A stretch of 64,000 nt of DNA from a virus (IMGVR_UViG_3300025759_000073:1-64000), one strand, 5' to 3'. Positions 22,292 through 52,865 are shown, counted from the first letter of the stretch. Program-made: numbers and translations. Notes: generated by a model not told the origin, from the sequence alone.

Positions 22292-22332
22292 AACTCAAAG
22301 GAGGAGAACCATATGCTAAACTAAGTTAGCAA

Positions 22333-28300: not shown

Positions 28301-28696
28301 TTAAATTAGTTTAGACCAGTTTCCCATTCCCGGGAGTGCTGTAATATCAATACCAGCATCATTTGGATCTTGATTTGCCAAAGGGGAACGGCTGCTTTCC
28401 TGAGCAGTCATTGGCTTTGTGTTTTCAAAAACATTCACACCATTGAACCTTTGGCTCCCAATCGAATCCAAAAGCTTTTTTCTTGCTTCTTGATTTTTTC
28501 TATTTTGTTCTTCCACTCTAATCTTTTGAGATTGATTGGTTTTCTTTTCTTCGACAATAACTTGTGCCTTAGCCAAGCCAATTGCTGTCTCTTGAATAAT
28601 AGAAGCTAAAAGGCCGTCTTTTGTCAAAGATTCTTCAATAACTTCTTTAACAATGGGTCTGATAATGTTTTTTAGCTTTTCGAGATTGATCTTCAT
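28301..28696 (-). CDS. hypothetical head-module protein
   Basis: N-terminal LKNIIRPIVKEVIEE leader-like helix; C-terminal DPNDAGIDI. Confidence 0.7.
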   Translation of the reverse strand: MKINLEKLKNIIRPIVKEVIEESLTKDGLLASIIQETAIGLAKAQVIVEEKKTNQSQKIRVEEQNRKNQEARKKLLDSIGSQRFNGVNVFENTKPMTAQESSRSPLANQDPNDAGIDITALPGMGNWSKLI

Positions 28697-35183: not shown

Positions 35184-35525
35184 CTATTTTTTGTCTGGTC
35201 TCCAACCTTCCTTCCATCTTTGTTCTCTGCCTTCAATCCACTGTACATAGCAATCAAAACAGCAGGAAAACTTTGTGAAATAAACATCGTGTCTTGAGCC
35301 AATCTTTGTTTGTTCACAAGTTGAACAAACTCTTGCTACTTTTGAGAGGTTTTGTTTTGCTTTCTTCTCTAAATCTCTCTTTCTTTTTTCCTTTTCTTTC
35401 AATTGTTCAAGATATTCTTTTTCTTTTTCTTGATCCCAGCCTGCTTTTGGGTTTTGAACTGCCTCTGCACCCCATTTTTCGGAGATTGCTTTCTCCATTT
35501 TCACAACGTAGTTTTGGTCTTTCAT
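35184..35525 (-). CDS. zinc-finger-containing hypothetical protein
   Basis: CSTC...CCFDC; WIEGRE.RW. Confidence 0.7.
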   Translation of the reverse strand: MKDQNYVVKMEKAISEKWGAEAVQNPKAGWDQEKEKEYLEQLKEKEKRKRDLEKKAKQNLSKVARVCSTCEQTKIGSRHDVYFTKFSCCFDCYVQWIEGREQRWKEGWRPDKK

Positions 35526-36313
35526 TAAACCTCCTTAAGTTTCTTTTGAATCAATGGCCACAATTTTTTGTAAAGATGTTTTAAATAAGGTTGCTTATCT
35601 CTCATTGTATGTTGCAGTGTTTTATTATTTATAAATCTGGGATCGTCTCCCAATTTCGCCTCTTTAAACGCTCGACTAACTCCTAATAAGAGTTTAAATA
35701 GATTTAACTGCGTAACCTGCCCTTCCTTGTAAAAATTAAACAAACTGTTTAAGTATTCTTTATCTTGTTCGTCTTCTGAATTTAAAAAGTCAACAACCTC
35801 TTTGTATATTTCGCTAGAGTGTGCTAAGATTTCTCTTTTTTGGGAAAGATAACCTTTTTTAAAATCTGATTTTTTAAAATATTTTGAATCTATCAGGTGA
35901 ATCAACTCGTGATCAAGCATCCTACTTATGGCAAAGTCAATAGTTTCTTTGTCGAAATCTTCCTTGTATGCTACAACTATTTTTAAATGATAATAACCTT
36001 TATCGCTTTCTTCCGAAAGAAATGCCAGAGAGTCTTCTTCTCCCTTTAGGGGCCGACCAACTGAAAGAATTAAGTCAACAACCTGCTCCTCTCCGGCAAC
36101 ATTTTTAAACTTAAAGCCTTCGGCTTGATCATAAATTTCCTCTTCTTTATCGGAAGTTAAATATATATTTAAAAGCTCACGAAACTTGTCTTCAATCAAT
36201 TTTAAATTTTCATTTGAAATATGATTTTGAATTTTTAAAACACCTTCTTTCAAAAGTTCTCTTTCGATCTCTTCTTTGATGATTTTGAGAATGGTTTCTT
36301 TCTTGATCTTCAC
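35525..36313 (-). CDS. zincin-like metallopeptidase with N-terminal leader
   Basis: HELIH plus downstream Y.....EI.A; start set at GTG (GTGA overlap) giving MKIKKETILKIIKEE. Confidence 0.65.
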   Translation of the reverse strand: MKIKKETILKIIKEEIERELLKEGVLKIQNHISNENLKLIEDKFRELLNIYLTSDKEEEIYDQAEGFKFKNVAGEEQVVDLILSVGRPLKGEEDSLAFLSEESDKGYYHLKIVVAYKEDFDKETIDFAISRMLDHELIHLIDSKYFKKSDFKKGYLSQKREILAHSSEIYKEVVDFLNSEDEQDKEYLNSLFNFYKEGQVTQLNLFKLLLGVSRAFKEAKLGDDPRFINNKTLQHTMRDKQPYLKHLYKKLWPLIQKKLKEV

Positions 36314-36750
36314 TTTTGAATTCCTTGTATTCCGTAAAGAATTAAAATTGTTGTTCCTGCTCCGGCAACAAAGCCAATTGTGATCCAAAGAGGTGTCCAA
36401 TTGTTTTGCGGCTTTGCAATCTTTCTTAATCTTGTAATCTCTTCTTGATCAATCTTTCTTAAGTTTTTTCTCAATTCTTTTTCAATCTTGAAGTCTACTT
36501 TGCACTGATCAATCTTCAATTGAAGCTTTGCTTTTTCTTTTTGTTTCTGATAAGAACAATCCAGCTTCAAGCTTTTTTTCAAGTAATCTTGTTTTGCTAA
36601 AATCTTTGCCACCGCTTCATCATCCAAGAGCGTTCCAGAGAAGGGCGCTTTTGCCCCTTTTTGGAGTCTTGTGGACTTATTGGCATAGCAGGGCGAAATT
36701 GTGATGAAAGTGGCTAGAATGGTGCTTAAAATGCGTTTAAAGGTGATCAT
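36310..36750 (-). CDS. putative spanin-like protein (signal peptide, coiled coil, C-terminal TM)
   Basis: N-terminal signal, APFSGTLL, basic coiled coil, C-terminal WITIGFVAGAGTTILILY. Confidence 0.45.
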   Translation of the reverse strand: MITFKRILSTILATFITISPCYANKSTRLQKGAKAPFSGTLLDDEAVAKILAKQDYLKKSLKLDCSYQKQKEKAKLQLKIDQCKVDFKIEKELRKNLRKIDQEEITRLRKIAKPQNNWTPLWITIGFVAGAGTTILILYGIQGIQK

Positions 36751-37151
36751 TCTCCCTCCTTATAATCAAGACCAAATTCGTCTGCCAATCTTTTGGACAA
36801 TTGGGAAGGATCTTTCTTTGTTTGTTTCAAGATCTTTTTAACTTTCTTGTCGTATTCTTTCTTGGCGTTTTCTTTTCCAATCTTGTATTCTTTTCCAATT
36901 TCTTCCAAGATCTTTTCGTGTTTCTTTTCTAGATCTTTCTTTTCTTTTTGTTTTTGATCTTGCTTTTGCTGGATCTCGTACAATTCATCTTCTCTTCTTT
37001 TCTGCAAAGATCTTATAATTTGTCTTAGTCTTTTTTGACCGTCACTGGATACTAAAAGAAAAAGAGCAACTGTCACAAAGACAAAGACAATTGCTATAAA
37101 ATATTTGGATTCTGTCCACTTTCTTTTAATCTCTGCCCAAATCTCATTCAT
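36747..37151 (-). CDS. putative inner-membrane spanin-like protein
   Basis: Single N-terminal TM followed by charged coiled coil; directly after holin-like gene. Confidence 0.5.
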   Translation of the reverse strand: MNEIWAEIKRKWTESKYFIAIVFVFVTVALFLLVSSDGQKRLRQIIRSLQKRREDELYEIQQKQDQKQKEKKDLEKKHEKILEEIGKEYKIGKENAKKEYDKKVKKILKQTKKDPSQLSKRLADEFGLDYKEGE

Positions 37152-37459
37152 TTTGTCACCGTATCACCTGTTGTATCGGAAAGGGGAACTTTTCCTTTCT
37201 CATCTTTCTTGTCTTTGTCGGACATGATTGTTTTCACTGCTGTTTCAACTTTCGTTGTAACATTGGTCGAACCTTTCATTGCTTTCACTGCATCAATAAC
37301 AGATTGTCCACCAATATAAATAGCAGAGATCACAAGCCAGTCTCCTGATTTAAGATTGCCGGTTGTTAAAAATACGATTGTTGCGACAATCCAAACCAAT
37401 AACTTTTTTGAAATAAATGATGATAAATATTTATCAACAAATGCTTTTTTTCTAGCCAT
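37148..37459 (-). CDS. holin-like membrane protein
   Basis: SKKLLVWIVATIV and DWLVISAIYIGGQ TM segments, charged C-terminal tail, 103 aa. Confidence 0.55.
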   Translation of the reverse strand: MARKKAFVDKYLSSFISKKLLVWIVATIVFLTTGNLKSGDWLVISAIYIGGQSVIDAVKAMKGSTNVTTKVETAVKTIMSDKDKKDEKGKVPLSDTTGDTVTK

Positions 37460-37486
37460 TTTAAACTCCTATTTAAATTTAATTTG

Positions 37487-39022
37487 TTATTGCTGTTCAA
37501 ACCAGTTAACCAAAACTTGACCTGCAACGTTTCCGGTGGTTTTTACAGCAATTAGAATATCCTGACCTAATCCAAAAGCAAATTGCAATTCTGTAATGTC
37601 CTTTTGGACACCTTGTCCAGCGCCAACGATAAAGGTATAAAAAGGATCAATATCAGCCAAATTTGAAATTGCATTCGTAGATGGGCTTAATTGAGCATAA
37701 GAAACTACACTGTTATTTTCGTCAACATATTCGAAACTAACGTCCCCGGAGATTTTTGCTTTTTTAAACAATCCAACAACCAATGTTTTTGGAGAAGCAG
37801 CAGCAGACTCATTGGAAGCACCAATCTCCAAGAGATCAAATTCTCCATAGCAACTCTGATCTCTATAGACTCTATTAACTTTTAAAAGCGCCACGGGCTT
37901 ATAGGTTGCACTGTTGACAGTTGGGAACGTAAATGATTTACCAAACTTTGGATCTAATTTTTGAATTTGCCCTTCAACAAACCCAGCCATCGAAGCGGTT
38001 TTCAAAGTTTTGCCAGTTGTTCCGCCAATGTTTGCAGATGTTACTAAGACTGATGTGTTTGGATTTTTCAAAACCGGCGTGGTTCTAGCGTTTGCGTTTT
38101 TGATCATATGAAAAGGAGCCAACACTCCGGTTTCAGGATTTTCAACAGAAAATGATGCGTTTCCAAACCCAAGATATTGATATTGAATTTCATATACATT
38201 TCCTTTTGTAAGATCAATTGTCATGCCGGATGGCCCTTTTCCATCTAATCGATCAATATTAAAAGAAGATGCTGTAATGAATGTTGTTGTTTGCGCGGTG
38301 CTATCCTGTATTTGTGAAAATGAACCAACAATAGAACCACCAGAAGAAACAGAGTAAGAACCATCAAAAGCAGCGGCGGCGCGAGCAGAGATAAAATAAA
38401 CAGAGGAAGAAACTGCATCTGCTAACCAACCTCCGGGTGCCAATTGTGAATAGTCCCCCAAAGCAATCTGATAGGCTGTTTGGGTTACATCTGCTCCGCC
38501 GGTGACAGGCACAACAATAGAATTGCCATCCAAAGTAATTGTAACATCCTCTGTACCAGCGCCAGTCGTAATCTCTAGCTTTCTTATTTCTCTATCGCCG
38601 TCCTCTGCGTGTAAAATACCAAAAGAAGTTCCAAAGTATCCAATAAAATACCCATTCTCTGCGTTGCCAACTCCAATAAACTGTGCGTTTCCTGCATCTG
38701 GGGTGTCGTACAAGGCTGTTGCTTTCATTGAAGCGCCTTGTCCGGGGCGATATTTAAGACTCCTCCTCAACTGAACTGTAGCAGAACCTGATGCGTTTGT
38801 GCCACTTTGGAGAGAGCATATTCCATTTGTTGATGAAACTGTCGCGCCCATCAAAGACGATGTGGTAAAGTTTTGATCATTAATTCCATAGACAAAATCA
38901 CCTTGGGCAACTGGAAAAAAACTTTCTACCATCACTTGCCCAAACGTAGAAATAGGAGAAGCAATATTAACATTGTCCGCTCCAAGAGTTTTTTTAGGTT
39001 TATTTAAATCTGAAAATCCCAT
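37487..39022 (-). CDS. virion structural protein (beta-rich)
   Basis: 511 aa, Ser/Thr/Gly-rich; YRPGQG, FNIDRLDG.GPSG, YQYLGFG motifs. Confidence 0.6.
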   Translation of the reverse strand: MGFSDLNKPKKTLGADNVNIASPISTFGQVMVESFFPVAQGDFVYGINDQNFTTSSLMGATVSSTNGICSLQSGTNASGSATVQLRRSLKYRPGQGASMKATALYDTPDAGNAQFIGVGNAENGYFIGYFGTSFGILHAEDGDREIRKLEITTGAGTEDVTITLDGNSIVVPVTGGADVTQTAYQIALGDYSQLAPGGWLADAVSSSVYFISARAAAAFDGSYSVSSGGSIVGSFSQIQDSTAQTTTFITASSFNIDRLDGKGPSGMTIDLTKGNVYEIQYQYLGFGNASFSVENPETGVLAPFHMIKNANARTTPVLKNPNTSVLVTSANIGGTTGKTLKTASMAGFVEGQIQKLDPKFGKSFTFPTVNSATYKPVALLKVNRVYRDQSCYGEFDLLEIGASNESAAASPKTLVVGLFKKAKISGDVSFEYVDENNSVVSYAQLSPSTNAISNLADIDPFYTFIVGAGQGVQKDITELQFAFGLGQDILIAVKTTGNVAGQVLVNWFEQQ

Positions 39023-39433
39023 TTATCCTACCCCCACTGAGCCTGACCAGTTGTTAGCCAATCTTTGCTTTGGTATACCTGTCAACCCTGCAATGACAGA
39101 AGCCGAGCATTCATTTAAAGTATCCGACATTAAATAAAGATCTGTTACTTTAAACTCTGCTTCAAAGCTTTCTCCATTGTTCAATGTAAAATAATTGTTA
39201 TCAACCAAACCTTTCACTCCATTTTCAGATATTCCTACCCGAAGAGGCACGTTTGTTGCGCTCCCGTCTAGCGTGTTGGTAATTACAACAAATCTAGTGA
39301 CAGACTCAAAAGAAATGTTCTTTGGTGTCGATCCGGACGCTGGTACCGTTAAAGAAGAAGTCAGATAAGGTCTGGAACTGACTTGGTACGAACCAACGTG
39401 ACCCAAACCAACATCATATTTTGTCCAAGTCAT
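39023..39433 (-). CDS. putative capsid decoration protein (paralog of 27657-28046)
   Basis: Shared N-terminus, ISF..VT.....N, and LT.I C-terminal pattern. Confidence 0.55.
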   Translation of the reverse strand: MTWTKYDVGLGHVGSYQVSSRPYLTSSLTVPASGSTPKNISFESVTRFVVITNTLDGSATNVPLRVGISENGVKGLVDNNYFTLNNGESFEAEFKVTDLYLMSDTLNECSASVIAGLTGIPKQRLANNWSGSVGVG

Positions 39434-39443
39434 TTATAAACTC

Positions 39444-40160
39444 CTATTTTTGAACCAATCTTGAAACAAAGAACTTTCTTTTAAAACCATTCTTTGTTAC
39501 GTTTAGACGATAATAATCAAAGCCGTTCCCTGTTGAATAAGGATTTTCAACACCTTTTTCTTTCATCCAAGTTTTATCATAATAAGTAGTTGAGGAATAA
39601 ACGTTGACAACGTCGTTGCCTTTGTATTTGTCCAATCCCAATCCAACTGTAGCGTGACCAGATGAATAATCTTCTGCGAACTGCATTGAAACCCAATCTC
39701 CAAATTGGATCTGATAAGGATCGTGCGTTGTGAAAGTTTCAAACCAATCAAAGCGTTCCGGTCTATTTGCTAGCCACTTAAACCAACCCATTGCTCCAAG
39801 TTCGTCTGTTCGCATTCCATCAATCTCTTCGTCTTTATAAGCAAAGAAAAAGGCCCTTGCAACCTCCCAAGCTTCTCTGCCTGTAAAGTTGCCTTCTGGT
39901 GTTTCAAGATAATCCCCTGTGAACTCCTTCCACGCACGGAAAAAGATTTCCGAAGTGCATCCAACACAATAAGTTCCTTCGCCTTTTCTCAAAATCCTTC
40001 TTTTGTCATAATAGATATCTTCAGTTGAACCACCCCAGCTACCCCTTTTGTAAGGCATTGCTTTGGCATGAATATCAATGATTGCTTTTTTAATGCACCA
40101 TTGCCAATCTGAAATCTCTTCATCGTGTGGTAGAAGAGGGTACTTTTCGTCCATCTTCAT
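39444..40160 (-). CDS. NlpC/P60-like (papain-fold) Cys-His hydrolase, candidate lysin
   Basis: GTYCVG, GDWV, SGHATV ordering matches the Cys...GD...His pattern. Confidence 0.55.
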   Translation of the reverse strand: MKMDEKYPLLPHDEEISDWQWCIKKAIIDIHAKAMPYKRGSWGGSTEDIYYDKRRILRKGEGTYCVGCTSEIFFRAWKEFTGDYLETPEGNFTGREAWEVARAFFFAYKDEEIDGMRTDELGAMGWFKWLANRPERFDWFETFTTHDPYQIQFGDWVSMQFAEDYSSGHATVGLGLDKYKGNDVVNVYSSTTYYDKTWMKEKGVENPYSTGNGFDYYRLNVTKNGFKRKFFVSRLVQK

Positions 40161-41974
40161 GATTTCAAAATCCTTACAACAAATCTTCTTTTGCTTTCTT
40201 TGATGAAGTAGTCCTTGGAGGCTTTTGCTTCAGAATCAAATCTGCCCAGAATGTAATCAACAGCCTTTTCTTTAGAGAAGTCATCACTCAAGTACAAAAG
40301 AATTGAGTCGTGAAGGTTATTGAACTTTCCGGTTCGCATCTGAATGACTTCATTCATAACATAAAATGTTTTAAGTTCTCCGTATTTTTCTGCGTCTTGA
40401 TATCTTGTGTCCTTTGGCTTCTTCTTCTTCTCTTTCTTTTCTTTCTTATCTTTCTTTGGTTTAAACTCTGGGCGAACAGGATTAAAGCGATCTGGTTCTT
40501 TCCCTTTCTTACCAGAGGCTGTGATAGAGCGCACACCGGGAACAACCGTTTTGTCTCCTTTTTTAATTCCCAAGATATAATCAGCAGCCTCATCAAAACC
40601 TTCTGTTTCAATCTTATCCAAAATAACTTTAAGCCAGCTTTGATCTCCAAACTGTTCTGTATATTCTTTGTCCATATCCAACTCTTTAAGGTATGGGCCG
40701 ACCAACTTCTTATTAATCCTTTCCTCTTCGCTGAATTGTTGTTTAATCTTTTCTAGGTTGACGATAGATTGTTTAATTTGATTGATTGCAAATTCAGTAG
40801 TAACACCAAGACCTTTCTCTCCAGTCTTTCTGATTTGAGAAGCAACCCACACAATAGCTTGAAGCTCGTGAGGTAAGAGGCCTAGTTTTTTCGCTTCTTC
40901 AGCAACCAGTCCTGCCATATACCGATAAGTAACAACGTTACCCATCATCTTGCCTTTGATCTTTTCCCACTCTTTTGCCGTTGTAACACCTCTGACATTT
41001 GGATAAAAAGCGTCAATCATCCAAGTGTCAATTGTGGAGTTCCACATATAAAGCTCATCGTAGCTAATTTTCCCTTCTTTATCTCGCCCACCAGACAAAT
41101 CTGGGGCGATCAAATTCAGGGTGAAGTTTGGAACTTTGTGCGCATTTGTAAACCCTCGAAATTCTCCCTGATTTTTCTTTTTACCACCGGGAAAGATATT
41201 AATATATTCTCTCAAAAGCTCTTTGTTGTCTTTTGCATCCATTTCAACTGCCTTGAACATAAAGGCCGCTTCAGCCAAGTTCAAAGCAAACTTGGCTCTG
41301 GGGCTGTACGTTGCAATAAGAAGACCTAGCAAAGTAGCGTCTTGATCGTTTCCGGTTTCTTCATCGAGGAGATCTCTAATTTTATGATACCAATCTCTAG
41401 CTTTTTCAAAGAGACTATCAACTTCACCACCCTCTTTTAACTCATTAACCATGGCCTGAAAATCTTCCAGAACCCCTGCGGAAACGGGGAGGACATACCC
41501 CCCTTTTTCGAATTCCTCTGGACTCATACGGCCCAGACCTTTTTTCAAACCACTAACGGCCCCAATGTTCTGCTTCATTTGACCGGACGGGGTGAAAAGC
41601 TCCAACCTTCTCATCACAAGTTCTTTGTCTTCTTCGGGCAATTCGCTCCATGAATCGTATCCAAAATGGCGTAGAGCAATATAATCCTTTTCCTCTTCGG
41701 TGGGCTCCACACCTTGCTCTGCCGACTCATTCAAAGCGGTCGCAACAGGCTCTAGATCTTCTACTTCGATTCTGGGAATATCTTCCGCAGTTCCTCCGGT
41801 TCTTTCTTCAAATGCTTTGTAGATCTTTTCGATTGCTTGGTTGATTTTTGACAAGTCTTCTTTTGAAACAACAAAACCACCCAAAGAAGAATCATAAGAC
41901 ATTGTTTTGCCTTCTCTCTCTTTGAATTCTTTCATTGTTTTTCGAAAGCTTTCCATGATTAATTTCATCTTCAT
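40157..41974 (-). CDS. putative internal head protein with DNA-glycosylase-like helical domain
   Basis: MKLIMESFRK leader; WY...A.YSP...N, K..NF, TIDTWM, Y...A..LG..P..LQA..W. Confidence 0.55.
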   Translation of the reverse strand: MKMKLIMESFRKTMKEFKEREGKTMSYDSSLGGFVVSKEDLSKINQAIEKIYKAFEERTGGTAEDIPRIEVEDLEPVATALNESAEQGVEPTEEEKDYIALRHFGYDSWSELPEEDKELVMRRLELFTPSGQMKQNIGAVSGLKKGLGRMSPEEFEKGGYVLPVSAGVLEDFQAMVNELKEGGEVDSLFEKARDWYHKIRDLLDEETGNDQDATLLGLLIATYSPRAKFALNLAEAAFMFKAVEMDAKDNKELLREYINIFPGGKKKNQGEFRGFTNAHKVPNFTLNLIAPDLSGGRDKEGKISYDELYMWNSTIDTWMIDAFYPNVRGVTTAKEWEKIKGKMMGNVVTYRYMAGLVAEEAKKLGLLPHELQAIVWVASQIRKTGEKGLGVTTEFAINQIKQSIVNLEKIKQQFSEEERINKKLVGPYLKELDMDKEYTEQFGDQSWLKVILDKIETEGFDEAADYILGIKKGDKTVVPGVRSITASGKKGKEPDRFNPVRPEFKPKKDKKEKKEKKKKPKDTRYQDAEKYGELKTFYVMNEVIQMRTGKFNNLHDSILLYLSDDFSKEKAVDYILGRFDSEAKASKDYFIKESKRRFVVRILKS

Positions 41975-42249
41975 TTAACTTCTTCCTTTTTTATTTTAAC
42001 AATAAGGTCGCCACTGCCTTTGATTACTCTGTGATAAACAAAAGCAGGAATATAATAAGTTTTTCCTTCTTCAAGGGTTTTTGGAATTTCATTGTCCATT
42101 TGAAGTTGCCAGTCAGAAGATTGCAAAATTGTAACTTCTCTATTTTCTTTGTCTCTATGCCAGATAAGCTCTTCGGAGTCAACGTTCTCTTTGAACTCTC
42201 TGATTACAATATTATTTTCTAGTTTCTTCTCTTTAAAAGGGAATTCCAT
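41971..42249 (-). CDS. small cupin-like protein
   Basis: ELIWHRD.E.R, WQLQMDNE.P, IP...YHRVIKG. Confidence 0.65.
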   Translation of the reverse strand: MEFPFKEKKLENNIVIREFKENVDSEELIWHRDKENREVTILQSSDWQLQMDNEIPKTLEEGKTYYIPAFVYHRVIKGSGDLIVKIKKEEVK

Positions 42250-42250
42250 A

Positions 42251-43096
42251 TTACCACCAAGTAAACCTTTTCTTTGAACCGGTTAAATGCGGATAGCGAC
42301 CAACACGACAAGCCCAATATCCTGCTTTTGTTTTGTCTTTCTTTTGTTTGCATTTGTGTCGTGCTGCAAAAGACTTTCTTCTTTCTGGGCTGGCGACTTT
42401 GACCGACATTCCTTTGGAGCCAAACGAAACTTTGCGAATGTTTTTGGTTTTTGGGTCTCTGACATAAACATAAAACTTCTTGGAACCACCCCTTTGGGGT
42501 TTATTAAGCTTAACGTCCTTTCCTTTGTACTTTGCCTCCAAAAGAGACTCTTCCACCATTGGAAAGTCCAATGGAACTCTTTCGCCCTCAAAGATGCCGA
42601 ATTCTCCAATTTCAGTTTCAGAGATATAATATCTTTCAGCTTCTGTTAAACTAACCAAGCCTTTTTTCCAAAGGTTTCTTGCTTCTTTGAAAAGAGAAAA
42701 GAAGTTGTCAGAGTGAATACGATAAATGTTTTTATCAATGGTAATATTGTTGTCCATATGATACTTCATCCCTTCGGAAAGTCTTTCTTCAAGCATTCCC
42801 TGATCTCTGGCAATCTCACCGGCCAGATAATGTTTAACAGAAGAAAGATAATCGGATGCTTTTGTGATCTTTGCATCAACCCACTCCGGAAGATCATCTT
42901 CGTCTCTGATCATGGAGAGTAGCTTTTCACAATATCTTTGCGCTTTAGCAAGATTTGTCCTAGCCATTGAACCTTCGTGATCGTGCTTATCAAAGTCGCG
43001 ACCGTGTTCGCTCCTGCAATAAGAGCACCCGGAATGTGGACATCTTTCATAAACACCAATACATCCTTTCATCTCTTTCAAAATCTTTATTTTCAT
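42251..43096 (-). CDS. multi-module putative internal head protein
   Basis: DHEGSMAR..LPEWV..KIT.A.DY module; GMKYH...YR..S..FF.LF.EAR module; KKFYVYV...FG...RRKSF.ARH.C...GYWAC module. Confidence 0.65.
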   Translation of the reverse strand: MKIKILKEMKGCIGVYERCPHSGCSYCRSEHGRDFDKHDHEGSMARTNLAKAQRYCEKLLSMIRDEDDLPEWVDAKITKASDYLSSVKHYLAGEIARDQGMLEERLSEGMKYHMDNNITIDKNIYRIHSDNFFSLFKEARNLWKKGLVSLTEAERYYISETEIGEFGIFEGERVPLDFPMVEESLLEAKYKGKDVKLNKPQRGGSKKFYVYVRDPKTKNIRKVSFGSKGMSVKVASPERRKSFAARHKCKQKKDKTKAGYWACRVGRYPHLTGSKKRFTWW

Positions 43097-45078: not shown

Positions 45079-46841
45079 TTCTTTTTTCCCTTTTTGGCAG
45101 ATTTTTTACCCCAAGACTTCCCTTTACCTTTGCTTCCACAAGCAGCCGGCGTTGGACGGCAAGAGGGGTATTTTGCTCTTTTCTCACCTTTCTGACGACC
45201 ACAAGACTTGCAGGTTTTCTTTCCTGTTTTCTTGTCTGTTCGGCAAGTATTGCAATCAACCCAGCCTTTGCTTTTTCCTTTACCACCTTGCCTTTCAAAC
45301 CAACCGTGAAGACCTTTATCTTTTTCTTTGGAAAAGTCAGTCTTTACTTTTTTTTTAGCCTTCTTTTTTTTCTTCTTTTTTCTTTCTTGGATCATTTTCT
45401 CTAATTTATCTGCTTGGCTAGAATGAGCCTCTGAACCTTTTTCAAGTTTTGCTGCGCCATCTTCTAAGTCTTTTGCCATTTGAGCGTGAGACTCTGATGC
45501 TGCTCTTAGCTTTGTTACAATGTCAGCAATTGTTTCCTTGTCTTCTGGAGTGATTTCCCTCTCTTCTGTCAGACCTTTCCAGATATTTCTCCTTCGCCTT
45601 CTTTCTTGCAAAGTATCCACTTTCTCGCAGCCATTCTGCGTTCCGTATAGTTGTTTGCCAAACTCAGCACAATTGATCCTATCATCTAAATATTGATATT
45701 GCTCAGTTCTATTGTGTCTTTTTAATACCTCTCTTGCTTTTTTCTGAATGTCTATGTCTTTATCCATGTGTTGGACGATTATGTGAAAATGGTCCCAATT
45801 TTGGTCAGAAAAGTTATTATAATCTGCATCAGACATCATATTGAATAATTTTTTAAATTCTTCTTGTCTAGAGTGATCACCAAACAAATCTTCCTTATCA
45901 GTTCCATGTTCTTTTGCAAATTCATCAACTAGTTCTTCCGACCATCCACCTGCCGCCTTCAACCGAATCGCCCAAATTTGTCTTAATTCCTGATCGCCTT
46001 TTGCTAGTTGCGATAGTTTTTGTTTAATGTCGCCCTCACCTGCCGCCTCGTTTAGCTCTTCTGTTAGACCTTTCCAGATCTTTCCCCTGCGACACTGAAC
46101 AACTGCGCCGCTAGCGTAGGCTGAAGGCCACACATCATATTTTCTTTTTGCAATGCGAGTGCAACGATCGTCTTTGCCTTTCTTCTTTTTGGATTTTTTC
46201 TTCTTTTTTTTCTTTTTGGCCTCTTCCAGTGCTAATCTAACCTCCTCTAGAATGATCGCACTTAATTCTTCAATATTCATATTTTTGCTTTCCTTATAAA
46301 GAACATAATCCATTTCATCAATATGTTCAGGGGCGTTTCTTAACATTTGAGTTGCTTCTTCAAAAGGCACAATCCTAACATCGTATATGGGAAGCCTTTC
46401 AACATCCCACTTCACCTCTTCAACGTAACCATACTTTGGAGGGACATCAGTCTTGAAAATGATTGCTACGATGTCCTCATCGCCTAGGTGAGTAGTTTGC
46501 ACTCCGGGTACAAAATCTCCCCAAATCAATGAAACCGCGTCAATCGTATCTGTTCCAAACTTCTTTATACCTTCGGGCTGTCGAAGTAGTACTCCCATCT
46601 CTCTAATCTTGTAAGCTCTATCTCGCAGGGTGAAGTGCAGAAATACATCATCTTCTACGTTTTTGTACAAAGTGTCTTCCAAGATCAGATCCTCGTTAAC
46701 TTCTGCTGCATAAAGCGCTTTTTTGTAATCCTCCGGATCGTCTGTGCATCCGACACGCTTTCCGCTTTTTTTGTAGACAACGTGCGTTCCGGAAGAGCCA
46801 TCTGATTTTTTACACTTTGTTTTTCTAATCTTATAAGGCAT
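45075..46841 (-). CDS. modular polyprotein-like putative internal head protein
   Basis: Six apparent modules separated by L/I-x-E junctions and poly-Lys tracts; includes DUF6624-like and PSAYASG / GL.GWF...CGR...YP.CRP modules. Confidence 0.7.
   Translation of the reverse strand: MPYKIRKTKCKKSDGSSGTHVVYKKSGKRVGCTDDPEDYKKALYAAEVNEDLILEDTLYKNVEDDVFLHFTLRDRAYKIREMGVLLRQPEGIKKFGTDTIDAVSLIWGDFVPGVQTTHLGDEDIVAIIFKTDVPPKYGYVEEVKWDVERLPIYDVRIVPFEEATQMLRNAPEHIDEMDYVLYKESKNMNIEELSAIILEEVRLALEEAKKKKKKKKSKKKKGKDDRCTRIAKRKYDVWPSAYASGAVVQCRRGKIWKGLTEELNEAAGEGDIKQKLSQLAKGDQELRQIWAIRLKAAGGWSEELVDEFAKEHGTDKEDLFGDHSRQEEFKKLFNMMSDADYNNFSDQNWDHFHIIVQHMDKDIDIQKKAREVLKRHNRTEQYQYLDDRINCAEFGKQLYGTQNGCEKVDTLQERRRRRNIWKGLTEEREITPEDKETIADIVTKLRAASESHAQMAKDLEDGAAKLEKGSEAHSSQADKLEKMIQERKKKKKKKAKKKVKTDFSKEKDKGLHGWFERQGGKGKSKGWVDCNTCRTDKKTGKKTCKSCGRQKGEKRAKYPSCRPTPAACGSKGKGKSWGKKSAKKGKKK
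45561..46079. repeat. 24-bp direct repeats (45561-45584 and 46056-46079) flanking an in-frame module
   Basis: CTCTTCTGT(C/T)AGACCTTTCCAGAT, 23/24 identical, both encoding IWKGLTEE; period 495 nt. Confidence 0.9.
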
Positions 46842-47260
46842 TATTTTTCACCTTTTTCTTGCCATTCGTAAGAAACTTTATCTTCTTTAATTGGCCCGCC
46901 TGCTGCCCAAGTGTAGCAAGTTCTTGCGCTGTGGCATTTGAAGTGGTGCATCCAGCAATAGCCCAATCGACCATCTTCATCAGAGACAGGGCCGGGCATA
47001 CAATCGTCCATTCTGGGTGAAATATCAAAAGCAACACAATTGCCGCATTTGGACTTTTTAGCCACGTCGGGGGTAGTGTTCCAATGCTCTGCGGCTCTTT
47101 CCCAGTAAGCCTCGTCAGAGAGGTTCAAAGGGCCGTATTGGATGTGTTTTGCCTTGATTGAAGCGTTTCTGTTTTTGGTGTTTAGCTCTAGATCTTGTGT
47201 GGCAGGAGGGCATTTACCTCCTGAAATGGGGAGTTTTTTGAGGAATTTAATTTTGATCAT
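46841..47260 (-). CDS. Cys/His-rich protein with HiPIP-like cysteine spacing
   Basis: CGNC..F...GYC.....C....TC..W. Confidence 0.6.
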   Translation of the reverse strand: MIKIKFLKKLPISGGKCPPATQDLELNTKNRNASIKAKHIQYGPLNLSDEAYWERAAEHWNTTPDVAKKSKCGNCVAFDISPRMDDCMPGPVSDEDGRLGYCWMHHFKCHSARTCYTWAAGGPIKEDKVSYEWQEKGEK

Positions 47261-47287
47261 TGTTGAGCGCCTTTTATATATTTATAT

Positions 47288-47295
47288 ATAAATAG
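47288..47295 (-). promoter_or_regulatory. candidate late promoter motif CTATTTAT
   Basis: Intergenic copy 28 nt upstream of the first gene of the cargo/lysis run. Confidence 0.65.
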
Positions 47296-47302
47296 GTGCT
47301 TT

Positions 47303-50300
47303 TTATTGATTTACTCTCGCAAATCCATCAACTCTATCAATATCAATTGTTGAATCAACAATGTCCTTGAGAGAATCCATATGACTTATGATCAAAACCG
47401 TTTTAAAGTAGTTTTTAATCATTTGAAGTATTCTAGTGAAGCCTTCCAAGTTATTTTCATCCAAAGCTGTTCCCGGCTCATCTAAGATGAAAATATCGCT
47501 TTTTGGAAGAGAAGAGACATTCAACAGGGCCAGTCTTATAGCCATAGCAGCAATGGACTTTTCGGCTCCAGAACCTAATTCTAGAGGTCTAGGATCGTGC
47601 CCTTGATGTTGGATAAGAATGTTCAATTTCTTTTCTTCTGTTTCAAAGAAAACTTCAAAATCAACAACCCCTGTCAAGATCTTTTGAACCTCTTCGTTGA
47701 TCTTTGGGAGTCTTTTTTTGATAATCTCGTATGAGATGCCAGAGTTGTGATAGCAAGTCATGAACAAATGATATGCTGCAAACTTCTTTTTATTTTCTTC
47801 ATACTCTTCGGCTTCTTTTTTGACAGTTTCCAGTTTTTGCTCAATCTGACCCTTAACGGTGTGAAGATGAATATACTCTGCTTCGCAGGTGTTATATTCG
47901 TTTTCTTTTTGTTTGAGGTCTTTTTTAAGCTGCTTCTCTTCTTTTATCAAAGCTTCGAGATTTTCAATCGCTTCCTTGTTATCTTCGTATTCTTTAATAT
48001 CAGACCTCAATTCAGAAATAATGCTTTCAGTAGATGAAATCTTGGTTTCACCTTGAAGCACTTTGTTCTTCAATTTAAGCAGTTCAGAGCTAACTTTGTC
48101 CTTTTTCTCAACTAACTTCTCATAGTTTTGAACATACTCTTCTGCTTTCTTATATTCGTCACCATCAATGTAATCCTGTGCTTCTTCTTTTTCTTTTTGA
48201 AGTCCTTTCAAGGCCAACTCCAACTCTGAAACTGTTGTTTTTGCAACAAAAGCATCTTTGATAAATTTGCAAGTTTTAAACTGATCTCCACAGGGAACCT
48301 GATCGAGAAGAGAGATCTTTTTCTCTTCCATTTTCTTCTTGATTTCCTCTTGTTTTACCTCATTTAAGATCAATTTAACTTGCTTTGCTTTCTCTTTACC
48401 AACCTCGTAAGATTGGTAGTATTCTTCCGGATCAAAAGTGGAAAGGAACTCTTTGATTTTGTTCAAATAAGCACTTTTTTCTTCTTTTTGCCCTTCCAAA
48501 TTAGCTTGGCTTGCTCTCAAGGTTTCCAAGATTTGATTAGAGTTTTTCAACTCTTTTCTGCACTTCTCAACATTGATGATTTTTGCTGGAACTGACTTGA
48601 TTTTGTGCTCTAAAAGAGAAAGCTCTTTTTCCATTCCTTTCTTCTCATTTTTCAGTATATCGCAGCATTCCTTTTTCTCATCTAGATCTAATTGGTTGTA
48701 GATTAGTGCGCTTTGTTGTTCAAAAATCTCATCTTTGAAGTTTCTTTCTTCTTCTTTTTTGATCAAAGCTTTAAGGTCTCTGGAATCTTCCTTTGCCGCT
48801 TTGAATTTTTCTTCAAAAAACACCAAATCTAGGAATTTTGCCAAGATTTCCTTGCGTTTGGTAGAGCCTTCATTTACAAACTGCAATGCTCCGTGTTGTG
48901 CTGACATTGATGTAATCAGAAAATCTTCAATTGAGCCAATATATTTGCGAATATTCCTATCTGTCTCCGCCCTTGTATTTCCATTCAATTCTACAACTTT
49001 TTTCGCAGCAGGGTCAAAACAAGAAAAATCAACATTCACTTTTGCTTCATCTGTTGTCTTTCCTTTGAGCTTTTTTACATACTTTTCAATGCTTCTGGAA
49101 ATAGTGTACTCTTCCCCTCCAATGTCAAATTTAAGTTCAATGTTTGCATCTGTCTTATTTTGGTTGATAAAGGAAATATTCTTCTTTGCCGGCTTTGAAG
49201 TGGTGTTAAACGCACCCAAGAGGAAAGAGTCAATAATACTGGACTTTCCAGAGTAGTTCTTCCCAAAGATTCCAATGATTCCTTTCATTTTTTCAAAGTC
49301 TAGAGAGTTATCACCCCCATAGTTGAAAAGGTTTTCCCATTCCATAGACTTCATCTTCCAGTTCAAATTGCGAAGTTGATCATCACTACCTTCAACTAAT
49401 GAATTATATTTTGCATTAAGCTCTACGACCTTGTCCATAATATCATCTTCAACTTCAAACTCTTCAAGGTACTCTTTCATAAGCTTTTTCTGGACTTCTA
49501 CATCGCGAAGGTTTTCAATCTCGCCGTCCTTTAGATCAACATTTTTTTTAGCCAACTCTGCTTTGCTCAAGTGGGTGACAGACTCTGCTTTAAAGTTGAT
49601 TTTAGCGTCTTCAATAGCTTTTTTAAGAACGTCAAGTGTGATGTTGCTTTCAGACACCAATCGAATCCTAGCTCCGGCCTTTGGATTGGCTGATTTTGGA
49701 ATCTTTCCTTTCTTAGTCAACTTGATCGTAACAAAAGGCTTTGGATTCTCCAGAAGAATGTGTCGAACAGAAAACTTGTCTTTGTCTTCGATCTCCCAAA
49801 CCAAAAAACCTTTGTCGTCTGTTTCGCCAAAGTTTTGTTGCACGGTTGACCCGGCATACCTGATCTTTCCTTTGCGATCGATCTTCTGATTTGTCTTGTG
49901 GATGTCTCCCAGAAAGCCATAATCGAACTTTTTAAGGTCTTCAATCTCAACATCGCCGTGTTCGATCACATATCCAACATCTGTTACCGACCCTTTGACC
50001 GCTCCATGGTAAAGAGCAATGTTGATCCGATCAGGATCTTGTGTTAGATCCCAATTGTCTTCGTCAAAGATGCTCAACACATTCAGCGTAAAGGGCTCTG
50101 TAAGCCTTATTTTAGCCGCCTTCTTGATCAAATGGAGGTTAGCTATACCTAGGGCATCTACAATGGGAGAAATGGCATCCTGACGGCTTTTATTGCGCAG
50201 GTTTCCATCGTGGTTCCCCAAGATGATATAAGTTGGCGCAATTGCTGCCAAGTTCTTGAAGAAATCGGAGCAGATTTCAACAAATTCTGGTGAGATTTGG

Positions 50301-50452
50301 GTTTTGGTGTGAGCAATATCACCACAATGAATAATATAATCTGGCCTTTCTCTTTTCAACTCTTTATAAAGTTGCTTGAAAACTAGATCATACTCGTAGT
50401 GATATTTAAGGTTTTTAATGTGGGTGTCTGCAATATGGGCAAACTTAGTCAT
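47303..50452 (-). CDS. fused Mre11/SbcD nuclease and Rad50/SbcC ATPase (gp47-gp46 fusion)
   Basis: DTH, GDIAH, GNHD, GDIH phosphoesterase motifs; GKNYSGKS, coiled coil, SGAEK, ILDEP, ISH; start MTKF after GGAGG. Confidence 0.92.
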   Translation of the reverse strand: MTKFAHIADTHIKNLKYHYEYDLVFKQLYKELKRERPDYIIHCGDIAHTKTQISPEFVEICSDFFKNLAAIAPTYIILGNHDGNLRNKSRQDAISPIVDALGIANLHLIKKAAKIRLTEPFTLNVLSIFDEDNWDLTQDPDRINIALYHGAVKGSVTDVGYVIEHGDVEIEDLKKFDYGFLGDIHKTNQKIDRKGKIRYAGSTVQQNFGETDDKGFLVWEIEDKDKFSVRHILLENPKPFVTIKLTKKGKIPKSANPKAGARIRLVSESNITLDVLKKAIEDAKINFKAESVTHLSKAELAKKNVDLKDGEIENLRDVEVQKKLMKEYLEEFEVEDDIMDKVVELNAKYNSLVEGSDDQLRNLNWKMKSMEWENLFNYGGDNSLDFEKMKGIIGIFGKNYSGKSSIIDSFLLGAFNTTSKPAKKNISFINQNKTDANIELKFDIGGEEYTISRSIEKYVKKLKGKTTDEAKVNVDFSCFDPAAKKVVELNGNTRAETDRNIRKYIGSIEDFLITSMSAQHGALQFVNEGSTKRKEILAKFLDLVFFEEKFKAAKEDSRDLKALIKKEEERNFKDEIFEQQSALIYNQLDLDEKKECCDILKNEKKGMEKELSLLEHKIKSVPAKIINVEKCRKELKNSNQILETLRASQANLEGQKEEKSAYLNKIKEFLSTFDPEEYYQSYEVGKEKAKQVKLILNEVKQEEIKKKMEEKKISLLDQVPCGDQFKTCKFIKDAFVAKTTVSELELALKGLQKEKEEAQDYIDGDEYKKAEEYVQNYEKLVEKKDKVSSELLKLKNKVLQGETKISSTESIISELRSDIKEYEDNKEAIENLEALIKEEKQLKKDLKQKENEYNTCEAEYIHLHTVKGQIEQKLETVKKEAEEYEENKKKFAAYHLFMTCYHNSGISYEIIKKRLPKINEEVQKILTGVVDFEVFFETEEKKLNILIQHQGHDPRPLELGSGAEKSIAAMAIRLALLNVSSLPKSDIFILDEPGTALDENNLEGFTRILQMIKNYFKTVLIISHMDSLKDIVDSTIDIDRVDGFARVNQ

Positions 50453-50840
50453 TGAAGCCTCCATTTTTAACTTTTTCTATTGTTTCGCTGATTTCACTTC
50501 TGACAACATTAAATATTGCCGGTGACAGGTTGTACAACTCTTTAAATGCTTCGTCTCGCCAAAGATCAACATCTTTCTCCCTTTTATCAAATTCTTTTTC
50601 CAAAGCATAATCTGTATAATCTGGATTTACTCTTTTGAAGCTTTCTTTTTGCTCTTGTATCTCCCTTCTAGTATCGACATAAACTTGCAAAAGAAAAGAA
50701 AGAGATAAATACATTGCAGATTTCATAATTTTATACGCTTGTGCCACACCCACGACAAATTGTAGGCTCATGTAGGCCAGAATACCACCTAAAAACCAGA
50801 CCAACTCATAAACACCTTGTTGTTTCAAAAATTCAATCAT
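50445..50840 (-). CDS. hypothetical membrane protein
   Basis: Two N-terminal hydrophobic segments; AGGAG SD. Confidence 0.7.
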   Translation of the reverse strand: MIEFLKQQGVYELVWFLGGILAYMSLQFVVGVAQAYKIMKSAMYLSLSFLLQVYVDTRREIQEQKESFKRVNPDYTDYALEKEFDKREKDVDLWRDEAFKELYNLSPAIFNVVRSEISETIEKVKNGGFND

Positions 50841-50849
50841 TTGTGTCTC

Positions 50850-51773
50850 CTATATGTTAATCATTGAAAATAAAGTATCAAATCTAACTTCAACTGCTGT
50901 CATTTTTAGCCTTTGATATTCATATTTTGAAATGTCGTTCAAATCTTTTCCTTCTGGGACTTCTATTTTCCAAACGTCTACTCCATATTTGATCAAGCTT
51001 GAAATAATGTCAAGCTCTTTTTTGTAAGCATCTGGATCTAAAGCAATAAAAACCTTTTTGGCTTTTTCGACAATCTTTTGAAAAAGGTCTGACCTTTCTG
51101 AAAGGGTTGATCCTAAGATTGGGATCATATTCTTTTCGTGAATTGCATCAAAAACACCCTCGACCAAGATGATTGGCTTTTCCCAATCAATTAAAAGGTC
51201 ATTAAAAACAATATCTTTTGATGCTTTTGGGTTTTTGTACTTTTTCCAATCTTTTTCATATGTTCTTGAAACAAAATAACTAACATCCCCTTCATCATCA
51301 AAAGAAGGAATGATTATTCTTCCTTTGTATTCTCCCGATGGGCAATACCCAACCTTCCATTCTAAGATCTTTTCTTGTGAAAAGCCTCTTGATTTAAGAT
51401 AATTCAAAGGCTTTTGAGAATAAAGGTCAATTGACCCTGTGAAAAGCGGCTTGTACTCTTTTGGCAGATCGATCTTTTGCTTGATCTTCTCTTGTACCGT
51501 TGAGCCAGTGATCATCAGTTCAAAATCACGAACATCGATCTGATTTGTGATCTTAAGCCATTCTTGCTGGTTATCAAATGATCCAAATCTTTTTAGAAGG
51601 TAATAGACGTTTTTACCACTTGTGTCACAAACCCAACATTTGAATACGTTCTTAGAGATGTTCACAGACATTTTTGGCTTATGGTGCTTGCAGAAAGGAC
51701 AATAGAAAAGATGCTCGCTCCCTTTGGAGTAAGCATAATCTAATGTGTTTTTAAGGATGGATAGTTCTTTCAT
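50850..51773 (-). CDS. DNA primase (zinc finger plus TOPRIM)
   Basis: CPFC...CWVC, YLKSRG, RIIIP, KYKNP, VEGVFD, LDPD. Confidence 0.9.
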   Translation of the reverse strand: MKELSILKNTLDYAYSKGSEHLFYCPFCKHHKPKMSVNISKNVFKCWVCDTSGKNVYYLLKRFGSFDNQQEWLKITNQIDVRDFELMITGSTVQEKIKQKIDLPKEYKPLFTGSIDLYSQKPLNYLKSRGFSQEKILEWKVGYCPSGEYKGRIIIPSFDDEGDVSYFVSRTYEKDWKKYKNPKASKDIVFNDLLIDWEKPIILVEGVFDAIHEKNMIPILGSTLSERSDLFQKIVEKAKKVFIALDPDAYKKELDIISSLIKYGVDVWKIEVPEGKDLNDISKYEYQRLKMTAVEVRFDTLFSMINI

Positions 51774-51802
51774 GTGTGGCTTCCTTTGAAAAAGTTACAC
51801 AC

Positions 51803-51831
51803 ATTATATCAAGGATGGGGGGTGTTGTCAA
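51803..51831 (-). promoter_or_regulatory. perfect sigma70 consensus promoter for primase-Mre11/Rad50
   Basis: TTGACA-17 nt-TATAAT. Confidence 0.88.
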
Positions 51832-51844
51832 GAGGTTTATTTTC

Positions 51845-52303
51845 TCATCCCATAGGATAATCTTCCATATTCCCACTGTCTTCGTAAATAATAGCGCCAC
51901 CACCGGGAGAATACACATATCTTTTCCATGTTCCTTCACTAACATTAGTCGAATCTGAGAAGAACGAGGACTTCTTCTTAAGGTTAAATTTAATAACTTG
52001 TGTATAGTAACCTGTTTCTTCTCTTAACTCTCCACTTAAGATATCTTCTCTTGTCGCAGGAGGAAGAGGAGGGACATCTTCCGGCGCGAGTTCCACCGAA
52101 TACTGCTTGTTGCGTCCGACCTGCTTGGCTAAACTGTGATGGTCATATTTCTTAAGTTTTTCTAGATGTTGCTTATAGGCTTTCTGATCGGGTCGGCCCT
52201 TCCTATCTACAAAGTTACTCTGATCATAATCCCGCACTTCTCTTTCTTCCCTAAGTAACTCCTCCTTGATGATCTTCATTAGAAACTTCTTGGTGATTTT
52301 CAT
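51845..52303 (-). CDS. hypothetical protein with MKITK..L..IIKEE leader
   Basis: AGGAG SD, ATGA-type overlap; leader shared with 35525-36313. Confidence 0.7.
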   Translation of the reverse strand: MKITKKFLMKIIKEELLREEREVRDYDQSNFVDRKGRPDQKAYKQHLEKLKKYDHHSLAKQVGRNKQYSVELAPEDVPPLPPATREDILSGELREETGYYTQVIKFNLKKKSSFFSDSTNVSEGTWKRYVYSPGGGAIIYEDSGNMEDYPMG

Positions 52304-52818
52304 TTATTTGCTCTCCTTTTTAAAAATCCTGATTTTGCAATGACAATTGCGTCTGACATATCGTAATAAATAGGTTTTGGATTTCCTTTTTTCGTATATT
52401 CCGGATTGATTAACCCTTCTTTCACCAAAACCCCTAGAACAAAGGGCTTTGCCTTTTGGCCTTTTGGAACTTTGATACCGCAATCTTTTCTTGCGGAGGA
52501 AGCCGAAATGTATTCTGGGGGCATTCCATAGACCTCATAACAGAACCAAGATACAATCCCATTGAAAGCAGACAATGTTGAAAGAACTTTTGCAGAGGAG
52601 AAGCCTGATCTAAAAGATTGTAAAGACTTTTCAATATAAATGTTATTAATATCATATTCTTTTTTTAATTCTTCAAGTTTTTCTTTTACTTTTTCTGCTT
52701 TTTCATACATATTTTTGTATTTTCTTGTGTCAACAGCAGCATTGTACACAATATTTTCTTCTTTGTCAAGTACACAAATTCCAGTTATGCTTGTGCTAAC
52801 ATCCAAACCTAATATCAT
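52300..52818 (-). CDS. RuvC-like Holliday junction resolvase
   Basis: ILGLD.S...TG, IYIE, DMSDAIVIA acidic triad pattern. Confidence 0.8.
   Translation of the reverse strand: MILGLDVSTSITGICVLDKEENIVYNAAVDTRKYKNMYEKAEKVKEKLEELKKEYDINNIYIEKSLQSFRSGFSSAKVLSTLSAFNGIVSWFCYEVYGMPPEYISASSARKDCGIKVPKGQKAKPFVLGVLVKEGLINPEYTKKGNPKPIYYDMSDAIVIAKSGFLKRRANK
52366..52373 (-). promoter_or_regulatory. candidate late promoter motif CTATTTAT inside the resolvase gene
   Basis: 63 nt upstream of the leader-bearing gene 51845-52303. Confidence 0.45.
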
Positions 52819-52836
52819 TTAAACCTCCAAAGATAT

Positions 52837-52865
52837 ATTATACCACATTATAAGTCCATTTTTAA
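52837..52865 (-). promoter_or_regulatory. extended -10 sigma70-type promoter for the resolvase
   Basis: TGgTATAAT with TTAAAA 17 nt upstream of the -10 box. Confidence 0.55.

Follow-up and report, generated by a model that had tools for sequence, protein, structure and literature searches.

The cleavage consensus of gp21, the prohead protease of bacteriophage T4, is L/I-x-E. The T4 internal proteins IPI, IPII, and IPIII, as well as Alt, carry a capsid targeting sequence (CTS) that is removed by this protease (Mullaney and Black 1996, via PMC9026906, PMC5694885, and PMC3012670). According to the portions of these papers that deal with the CTS, ten N-terminal residues of IPIII are enough for incorporation into the head, with targeting depending mainly on residues 4 and 7 and processing on residues 8 and 10 (PMC9026906), and the internal proteins of T-even phages are diverse, being conserved just in the CTS (PMC3012670). 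The present study concerns two families of short N-terminal leader, A and B, encoded within the first 64 kb (64,000 nucleotides; referred to here as the window) of an 85,075-bp virus record from IMG/VR (IMGVR_UViG_3300025759_000073), for which CheckV gave a completeness of ∼47%. The source phage is an uncultured marine phage of the T4 type ("Far-T4"), and its closest cultured capsid proteins, all <50% identical, were those of Flavobacterium phage immuto, Microcystis phage Mel-JY01, and Rhodothermus phage RM378. Every gene of the window lies on the minus strand.

A first-pass annotation had proposed that these leaders load otherwise unrelated proteins into the phage head and are then cut off by the gp21-type Peptidase_S77 protease encoded nearby. 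The data obtained in this study point in the same direction, and we assign a probability of roughly 60% to the reading that leaders A and B are head-loading propeptides in the manner of the T4 CTS, processed by the S77 protease. T4 IPII and IPIII (NC_000866) both begin with MKTYQEFIAE↓A (the arrow marks a known or proposed cut). The leader A core, M-E-S-W-R-K-[FY]-[LIV]-x-E, has the same length of ten residues, with an aromatic residue at positions 4 and 7, an aliphatic residue at position 8, and Glu at position 10, which are the functional positions in T4. As in T4, the putative propeptide is short, N-terminal, common to unrelated proteins, and ends in aliphatic-x-Glu; a gp21-type S77 protease is encoded together with a gp23 capsid protein and a gp20 portal; and, as among the T4 internal proteins, the leader stays constant between close relatives and the cargo is hypervariable. 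Judged by motif position, the leader genes may also be late. In contrast to T4, the leader sequences are different, with leader B being longer at 19 to 24 residues (to our knowledge it has no T4 counterpart); a single lineage has at least two to three leader types that are interchangeable; the cargo reaches 600 to 660 amino acids (aa) and includes conserved enzyme-like proteins; and long proteins seem to use a similar element between their modules. The T4 CTS was worked out experimentally, whereas the role of leaders A and B is predicted from sequence. The T4-like role originally proposed was partly supported, being favored at the sequence level by the N-terminal position, the variable cargo, the Glu motif, the co-occurrence with an S77 protease, the link to a late-type motif, and the CTS positions kept in the leader A core. 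The cargo labels fared worse, and the leader code, first described as this phage's own, turned out to be common to a large uncultured lineage.

The minus strand has 72 open reading frames (ORFs) of ≥60 aa, and the leaders were examined by scoring the N-terminal 22 residues of these ORFs against each other, giving 2,556 pairs. With scores of 53 for B1-B2 and 38 for A1-A2, the leader-bearing proteins (Table 1) ranked 2nd and 3rd and were the top nonparalogous pairs, against a background with a mean of 12.2, a standard deviation of 4.2, and a 99.9th percentile of 34.7. Outside the N termini, no BLASTP similarity was detected within either pair. Hidden Markov models (HMMs) of the two leaders, when run on the whole 85-kb record, matched these four genes only, and an independent six-frame hmmsearch agreed. 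A1 and B1 begin at GTG within a GTGA overlap with the upstream stop codon, while A2 and B2 begin at ATG within an ATGA overlap, and the leaders are therefore truly N-terminal. Both families were thus confirmed on otherwise unrelated proteins at the places first reported. The pair ranked 1st, with a score of 72, consists of true paralogs at 27657-28046 (129 aa, MTWKYYDAGIGN...) and 39023-39433 (136 aa, MTWTKYDVGLGH...), both on the minus strand, one within the head module and the other within the run of leader genes.

Leader B was then sought across IMG/VR with the pattern M-K-I-x-K-x4-K-I-I-K-E-E, written as degenerate DNA, and was found in at least 122 places. Among the matches listed, 119 distinct ORF products begin exactly at the leader, and their continuations are diverse and up to 617 aa long. 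Positions that the pattern left free were conserved among the 112 distinct B leaders listed, with Leu8 in 110, L/I/V/M at position 16 in 99, Thr4 in 87, and Glu22 in 45. Because Leu8 is conserved and yet written with six different codons, selection appears to act on the peptide rather than on the DNA. The first [LIVMF]-x-E past the core has its Glu at positions 19 to 24 in 82 of 116 B-leader proteins, compared with 19.5 ± 4.0 (maximum, 34) in 500 shuffles, which supports the hydrophobic-x-Glu ending described earlier. Leader A, sought as K-L-x-M-E-S-[WF]-R-K-x-[LIM] with Arg limited to CGN codons, was found in 16 places, 15 of them with a start codon 1 to 5 codons upstream and differing proteins behind, and its consensus was KL[IL]ME[ST]WRK[FY]LxE. 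For the whole B2 protein, no IMG/VR relatives were found by the pattern method. A chance resemblance in a proteome rich in K, E, I, and L is hardly credible. Although the leaders are short and of low complexity, and a B-like protein next to the protease (B3) reached a pair score of just 29 with B1, this explanation is contradicted by the two pair scores above the 99.9th percentile, by the exact IMG/VR matches to both patterns, nearly all at ORF starts, and by the complete lack of HMM matches of ≥15 bits on the noncoding strand of 80 related loci.

Comparison with a 157-kb relative, G006, which is syntenic and ∼95% identical in most proteins, revealed that the differences between the two phages concentrate in the leader genes. 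B2 is only 32% identical to its counterpart, while the flanking genes are 96 to 99% identical. G006 has no A1, and at the B1 locus it has three leader-B genes where the window has one. A 588-aa modular protein of the window carries, relative to G006, an extra module of 165 aa between direct repeats of IWKGLTEE. Nucleotide identity is 25 to 30/30 across the upstream gene, the late-type motif CTATTTAT, and the first ten codons of the B2 leader, falls to 19/30 in the second half of the leader, and is mostly 1 to 14/30 in the cargo, apart from two stretches at 18 to 19/30 and the last 30 bases before the stop at 20/30. It recovers to 25 to 30/30 at the stop codon. From the drop at the leader end and the recovery at the stop, B2 appears to be a cassette bounded by the leader. 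Between these close relatives, the leader is constant and the cargo is variable. Scans with leader HMMs and patterns, along the lines suggested as a check, gave the anticipated picture in that the matches are almost always N-terminal, in the source record as well as in relatives, and in that the leaders sit on diverse proteins whose cargo differs between relatives. Separately, the G006 run lacks the second small paralog (39023-39433) and the 511-aa structural protein.

The proposed cut sites were also conserved within protein families. In the five homologs of B1, all found among 1.84 billion representatives, E23, G24, H135, E136, H139, and E161 are invariant, and two of the five bear a different leader, ending in ITE↓G or LNE↓G, with the same E↓G junction. 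Relatives of A1 were limited to three proteins in 5.8e9, the distant one of which keeps the junction FLSE↓KTRLDKE. Of the A2 homologs listed, 96/120 have W[RKN]x[FYHLM][VILMTF]xE within the first 30 aa, and E16 is conserved in ≥90% of 63 DUF7178 proteins; in a few members of this family, leader A is replaced by a B3-like helix or by a basic module at the N terminus. Across the B1, A1, and A2 families, the junctions appear to be conserved while the leaders change. The helices might instead serve a role outside the capsid, such as oligomerization, binding of a common partner, localization, or efficient translation starts, and have spread among late genes by recombination. Their generic amphipathic composition (K/E/I/L), the A-rich leader starts, the leader clusters that can be distant from head genes, and the recombination at the leader seen in the B2 cassette swap would all suit such a role. 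It is nevertheless distinctly improbable in view of the conservation at the amino acid level (Leu8 with its six codons), the Glu motif at a fixed distance, the invariant junction residues of the B1 homologs, the match of leader A to the four functional CTS positions, and the S77 protease present in all leader-bearing records that hold the head module (see below).

Similar elements may operate within longer proteins. The first-pass annotation had noted an internal helix related to leader B in the 588-aa protein. The helix precedes a poly-Lys tract and a module with the sequence DVWPSAYASG, and it remains a resemblance backed by the contexts in which the module occurs. Among 41 distinct contexts of the DVWPSAYASG module, 12 have [LIVMF]-x-E plus a Lys/Arg run ahead of it, seven near the N terminus (one cut by the contig end) and five internal, and in one IMG/VR ORF (L093) leader B is fused directly to the module. 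The same leader logic is probably at work inside the 588-aa protein. In another IMG/VR sequence (L256), a cupin-like module homologous to the 92-aa protein of the window is joined via EIIEE and poly-Lys to the DVWPSAYASG module, indicating that separate genes in the window are modules of one protein elsewhere. The basic N-terminal module of the 588-aa protein (MPYKIRKTKCKK...VGCTD...YKKALYA) was also observed at the front of DUF7178 proteins from other metagenomic sequences (P0011, P0094, P0112), where it replaces leader A.

For the analysis of flanking genes, 80 related loci were fetched by means of the protease. In these loci, 17/17 B-HMM matches of ≥15 bits were on the coding strand and 16/17 were strictly N-terminal, while the broad-A matches of ≥12 bits were N-terminal and on the coding strand in 5/5 cases. 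Protease-flanking ORFs start with B-type leaders in L160, L165, L170, L204, L208, and L224, for example, and with A-type leaders in L202, L219, L229, and L230. Of the leader-B records searched, 16/26 contained the S77 protease, including 4/4 of those at ≥90% completeness. Five of the 10 records without the protease were examined, and all five were also without a gp23 capsid gene; one had a large terminase (TerL) 54% identical to that of the window at 3.7 kb from the contig end, indicating that these contigs lack the head module. On the basis of these five, all leader-bearing records that hold the head module have a T4-type S77 protease. Five near-complete relatives each had 3 to 11 B matches and 1 to 6 A matches, often clustered, and in 2/5 a B-leader ORF is directly upstream of the protease. 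The capsid protein itself contains an L/I-x-E site, LLKE59↓AS, as had been noted, located 14 residues downstream of the position aligned to the mature N terminus of T4 gp23. By inference, this might be the maturation site, although the presence of the motif is no proof of cutting.

The gene for B3 lies directly after the protease gene, and its family has a conserved N terminus, MKKsELKkxLKPLiKECIkEvllEEG. The related helix claimed for this protein held at the profile level, its N-terminal profile being in register with that of leader B (hhalign 93.5%, E 2.3e-7, 22 columns), but not at the level of the leader B HMM, which did not match B3. Within the 80 loci, 66 ORFs gave BLASTP matches to B3, and the homolog was the very next ORF in 42. 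B3 is likely a prohead-core protein with an N-terminal helix related at this level to leader B. In the main alternative, the leaders would mark assembly proteins of the prohead core or scaffold, like T4 gp22, gp67, and gp68, that are cut up and expelled, so that they would serve head assembly and not delivery of cargo or effectors. The T4 core genes 67, 68, and 22 flank the protease position, as leader proteins often do here, the helix of B3 lies beside the protease, and many B-leader proteins are short and acidic; moreover, T4 gp21 is described as cutting gp22, gp67, and gp68 to fragments (PMC5694885, in its account of T4). We regard this alternative as unlikely. Large and well-folded conserved bodies follow the leader (A2, with a predicted local distance difference test [pLDDT] value of 84.6, and B1, with an invariant HExxH...E), a single conserved junction per protein was observed in the A1, A2, and B1 families, and cargo cassettes vary between near-identical phages, which is unexpected of assembly parts.

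The motif CTATTTAT (ATAAATAG on the plus strand) occurs in 11 copies in the window, against 2.33 expected; every copy has the coding orientation, and 0/100 shuffles reached 11. Seven of the 11, including the copy at 47288, are located 28 to 43 nucleotides (nt) ahead of the starts of structural or packaging genes, and one is located 42 nt ahead of the gene at 56173-59499. From these positions before structural genes, CTATTTAT appears to be a late promoter. All four leader genes lie behind such a motif, and the tightly packed run headed by the copy at 47288 contains A1, A2, B1, the 588-aa protein, and a virion structural protein (phrog_1645), in agreement with the gene arrangement first described. 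In G006, a separate 7-kb cluster contains six leader-B genes, of which 4/6 have CTATTTAT 30 to 45 nt upstream. Across IMG/VR, the linkage to late promoters was less clear, with CTATTTA found ≤100 nt upstream of only 14/114 leader-B ORFs among the matches listed, a modest excess over the 3.5 expected; many of these ORFs are inside operons. The canonical T4 late promoter, TATAAATA, was rejected as the recurring signal, being intergenic just once, at 47286, while CTATTTAT recurs instead. Near-consensus sigma-70 promoters (51774-51844 and 52819-52847) were also observed, with TTGACA-17-TATAAT before a primase gene and an extended -10 before a RuvC-like gene, amid genes that otherwise use CTATTTAT.

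If leaders A and B are CTS-like propeptides, the following sequence of events would be predicted. The leader genes would be expressed late, from behind their CTATTTAT motifs, and each protein would dock on the prohead scaffolding core by its short amphipathic N-terminal helix. Once the shell is closed, the S77 protease would cut after the Glu of the terminal hydrophobic-x-Glu, that is, after E15 in A1, E16 in A2, E23 in B1, and about E19/E20 in B2. The mature protein would remain in the head with the DNA and might be delivered to the host, where a role in host takeover or anti-defense is conceivable. A wider reading, put forward tentatively and with somewhat less than an even chance of being correct, is that the marine T4-like lineage uses interchangeable leaders (A, B, that of the B3 type, and one or more further types on the B1 homologs) to address proteins and polyprotein modules to the prohead and to mark protease cuts. 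If so, the whole set of packaged and injected proteins would be readable from sequence, including conserved HhH-GPD-like and zincin-like proteins, reshuffled by recombination at the leaders.

Several observations weigh against a CTS-like role. The leader A HMM found nothing in T4 at an E value of ≤10, so that the likeness is one of pattern rather than detectable homology, and the internal helix of the 588-aa protein was detected by neither leader HMM. B2 sits between the RuvC-like and primase genes, with sigma-70-like promoters nearby. The DUF7178 family is conserved at ∼50% identity, which is closer to the behavior of a core component than to that of a variable effector, and the small and acidic nature of many B-leader proteins would also suit core filler rather than cargo. 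In the five near-complete relatives, 24/52 (linear) to 33/52 (ends joined) leader matches were ≤35 kb from the protease, compared with ∼21 expected, a weak excess, and leader genes are thus not reliably close to the head module. In five cultured relatives (Syn9, S-PM2, HTVC008M, immuto, and Mel-JY01), the leader B HMM had no match and the leader A core, sought as a degenerate pattern, was absent, and thus no proteomics applies. A tblastn search of cultured phages with the 25-aa B2 leader also gave no match, possibly as an effect of the low-complexity filter.

The identities suggested earlier for the cargo were reexamined by sequence and structure. The zincin label for B1 derives from the HExxH...E, and the fold matches were weak, with PprI at Z 5.7 (rmsd [root mean square deviation] 3.9, 97 residues aligned) and other zincins at Z 3 to 4; the B1 model had no Foldseek match in the PDB at an E value of ≤0.001, and its sequence had none at ≤1. 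The ART-like label is a weak one: for A1, no ESM Atlas score reached 0.9 and the single ART-PolyVal lead, at 0.83, was carried by 29% of the cluster; the A1 sequence matched nothing in the PDB at an E value of ≤1. The A2 model consists of the leader as a separate helix (residues 2 to 20), a low-confidence linker, and a body in which residues 166 to 394 were placed by VIA-align nearest to HhH-GPD glycosylases, namely 3n0u (Z 8.2, which is below the level safe for helical proteins; rmsd 4.1, 167 aligned), 7ugk (Z 7.1), 1xqp (Z 6.3), and others at Z 4 to 5. This weakly suggests an HhH-GPD glycosylase-like fold for the central domain, and the glycosylase-like label is accordingly a doubtful one. 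The only Pfam match of A2 was DUF7178, searches of the PDB gave nothing with the model (Foldseek, E ≤0.001) or the sequence (E ≤1), and tblastn against cultured phages gave a weak partial match in Mel-JY01 only. For the leaderless 238-aa protein of the same run, a PDB sequence search was empty at an E value of ≤1.

Other described systems are more distant. Encapsulin cargo-loading peptides are short terminal peptides that direct varied cargo into a shell of the HK97 fold; unlike the leaders, they are usually C-terminal, uncleaved, and bind the shell directly, with no DNA and no injection. In phiKZ, 201phi2-1, and SPN3US, many head proteins, including those of the inner head and ejected set, are cut after Glu by a T4-related protease, and the SPN3US paralogs gp53 and gp54 share an identical 15-residue N terminus that their authors likened to the CTS (PMC5694885, PMC9026906). 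As far as the relevant sections of those papers describe them, the propeptides are mostly >100 residues long, have the motif A/S/G-x-E, and were established by mass spectrometry, whereas the leaders described here are short, spread across unrelated families, and predicted. Polyvalent proteins (Iyer et al. 2017, PMC5512222) resemble the present case in that they consist of several modules, have their genes among those of the virion, and are predicted to be packaged into the head and injected, and the 588-aa protein likewise gains and loses modules. They differ in that the small basic modules here are joined by [LIV]-x-E and poly-Lys and would be processed by the head protease and not, as in the part of that work concerned with processing, by a built-in peptidase (PMC5512222). 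The window proteins had no match to any Pfam domain of the polyvalent set, and the sole match of the modular 588-aa protein was phrog_727.

Literature searches, including searches with the literal leader strings, found no paper describing these leaders, and "capsid targeting" combined with "cyanophage" gave only a T4 review. The idea of head loading is known for T4, while the sequences and the number of the leaders, their distribution across an uncultured marine lineage, and their use in joining modules appear to be new to the literature. The T4 CTS is the textbook case of phage protein loading for delivery, worked out mainly in T-even coliphages. If leaders A and B function likewise, the packaged proteins of an abundant uncultured group of ocean phages could be listed by a simple rule on sequence, including those that change between near-identical strains. 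In that case the rule would point to candidate early-acting or anti-defense proteins, and the leaders could serve directly as tags to bring foreign proteins into these capsids.

Table 1. Positions of the leader genes, the proposed protease, and neighboring features in the window
Feature	Position	Strand	Details
A1, 661 aa	43093..45078	-	Leader A VKLTMESWRKFLLKE (45034-45078); A HMM, 32.6 bits
A2, 605-aa DUF7178 protein	40157..41974	-	Leader A MKMKLIMESFRKTMKE (41927-41974); A HMM, 32.7 bits
B1, 262 aa	35525..36313	-	Leader B VKIKKETILKIIKEEIERELLKE (36245-36313), junction E23↓G24; B HMM, 21.9 bits
B2, 152 aa	51845..52303	-	Leader B MKITKKFLMKIIKEELLREE (52244-52303); B HMM, 40.6 bits
B3, 131 aa, directly after protease, conserved in relatives	28301..28696	-	hhalign 93.5%, N-terminal profile vs B
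gp21-type Peptidase_S77 prohead protease, proposed cutter	28698-29297	-	Pfam 7.3e-30; phrog_207 2.5e-54
gp23-type major capsid protein	22333-24099	-	PF07068, 1.5e-72
Candidate maturation site LLKE59↓AS within gp23-type major capsid protein	23923..23934	-	
Acidic scaffold-like protein	24123-25199	-	
Ribosomal protein S21 homolog	28043-28291	-	PF01165, 5.5e-9
gp20-type portal	31034-33001	-	
Large terminase	33005-34603	-	
CTATTTAT late-type promoter motif, 63 nt upstream of B2 start, inside RuvC-like gene end	52366..52373	-	30/30 identical in G006
CTATTTAT with TATAAATA just downstream; heads tightly packed run 47260 to 35184	47288..47295	-	
First gene of run, 139 aa, Cys-rich, leaderless	46841..47260	-	
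Modular polybasic protein, 588 aa	45075..46841	-	Leader-like helix MNIEELSAIILEEVRLALEE (46218-46283), then poly-Lys tract and DVWPSAYASG module (phrog_727)
165-aa module of 588-aa protein, between direct repeats IWKGLTEE	45582-46076	-	
281-aa protein with basic C-terminal phrog_7595/DUF5754-like module, leaderless	42251..43096	-	
92-aa cupin-like protein	41971..42249	-	Homologous module upstream of DVWPSAYASG module in L256
238-aa run protein, leaderless	39444..40160	-	
511-aa virion structural protein, inside run	37487..39022	-	phrog_1645

Further features were observed in and around the head module. The gene for the S21 homolog lies within it, with B3 on one side and a small gene of structural appearance on the other; marine phages with S21 genes have been published before. 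In most of the 80 loci, the upstream neighbor of the S77 protease is typically a conserved membrane-looking protein of ∼95 to 115 aa (M.L.YF.L..YG.TQILVYG; 29404-29691, minus strand). After the capsid gene, at 22209-22332, a G+C-rich hairpin with a T run (CCCCCTTCC...GGGGGTTTTCTTTT) is followed by CTATTTAT before the next gene, in what looks like a terminator-promoter pair. Finally, a single ORF of 1,053 aa at 47303-50464 on the minus strand combines an Mre11/SbcD-like metallophosphatase N terminus (PF00149) with an SbcC/Rad50-like body (phrog_77).

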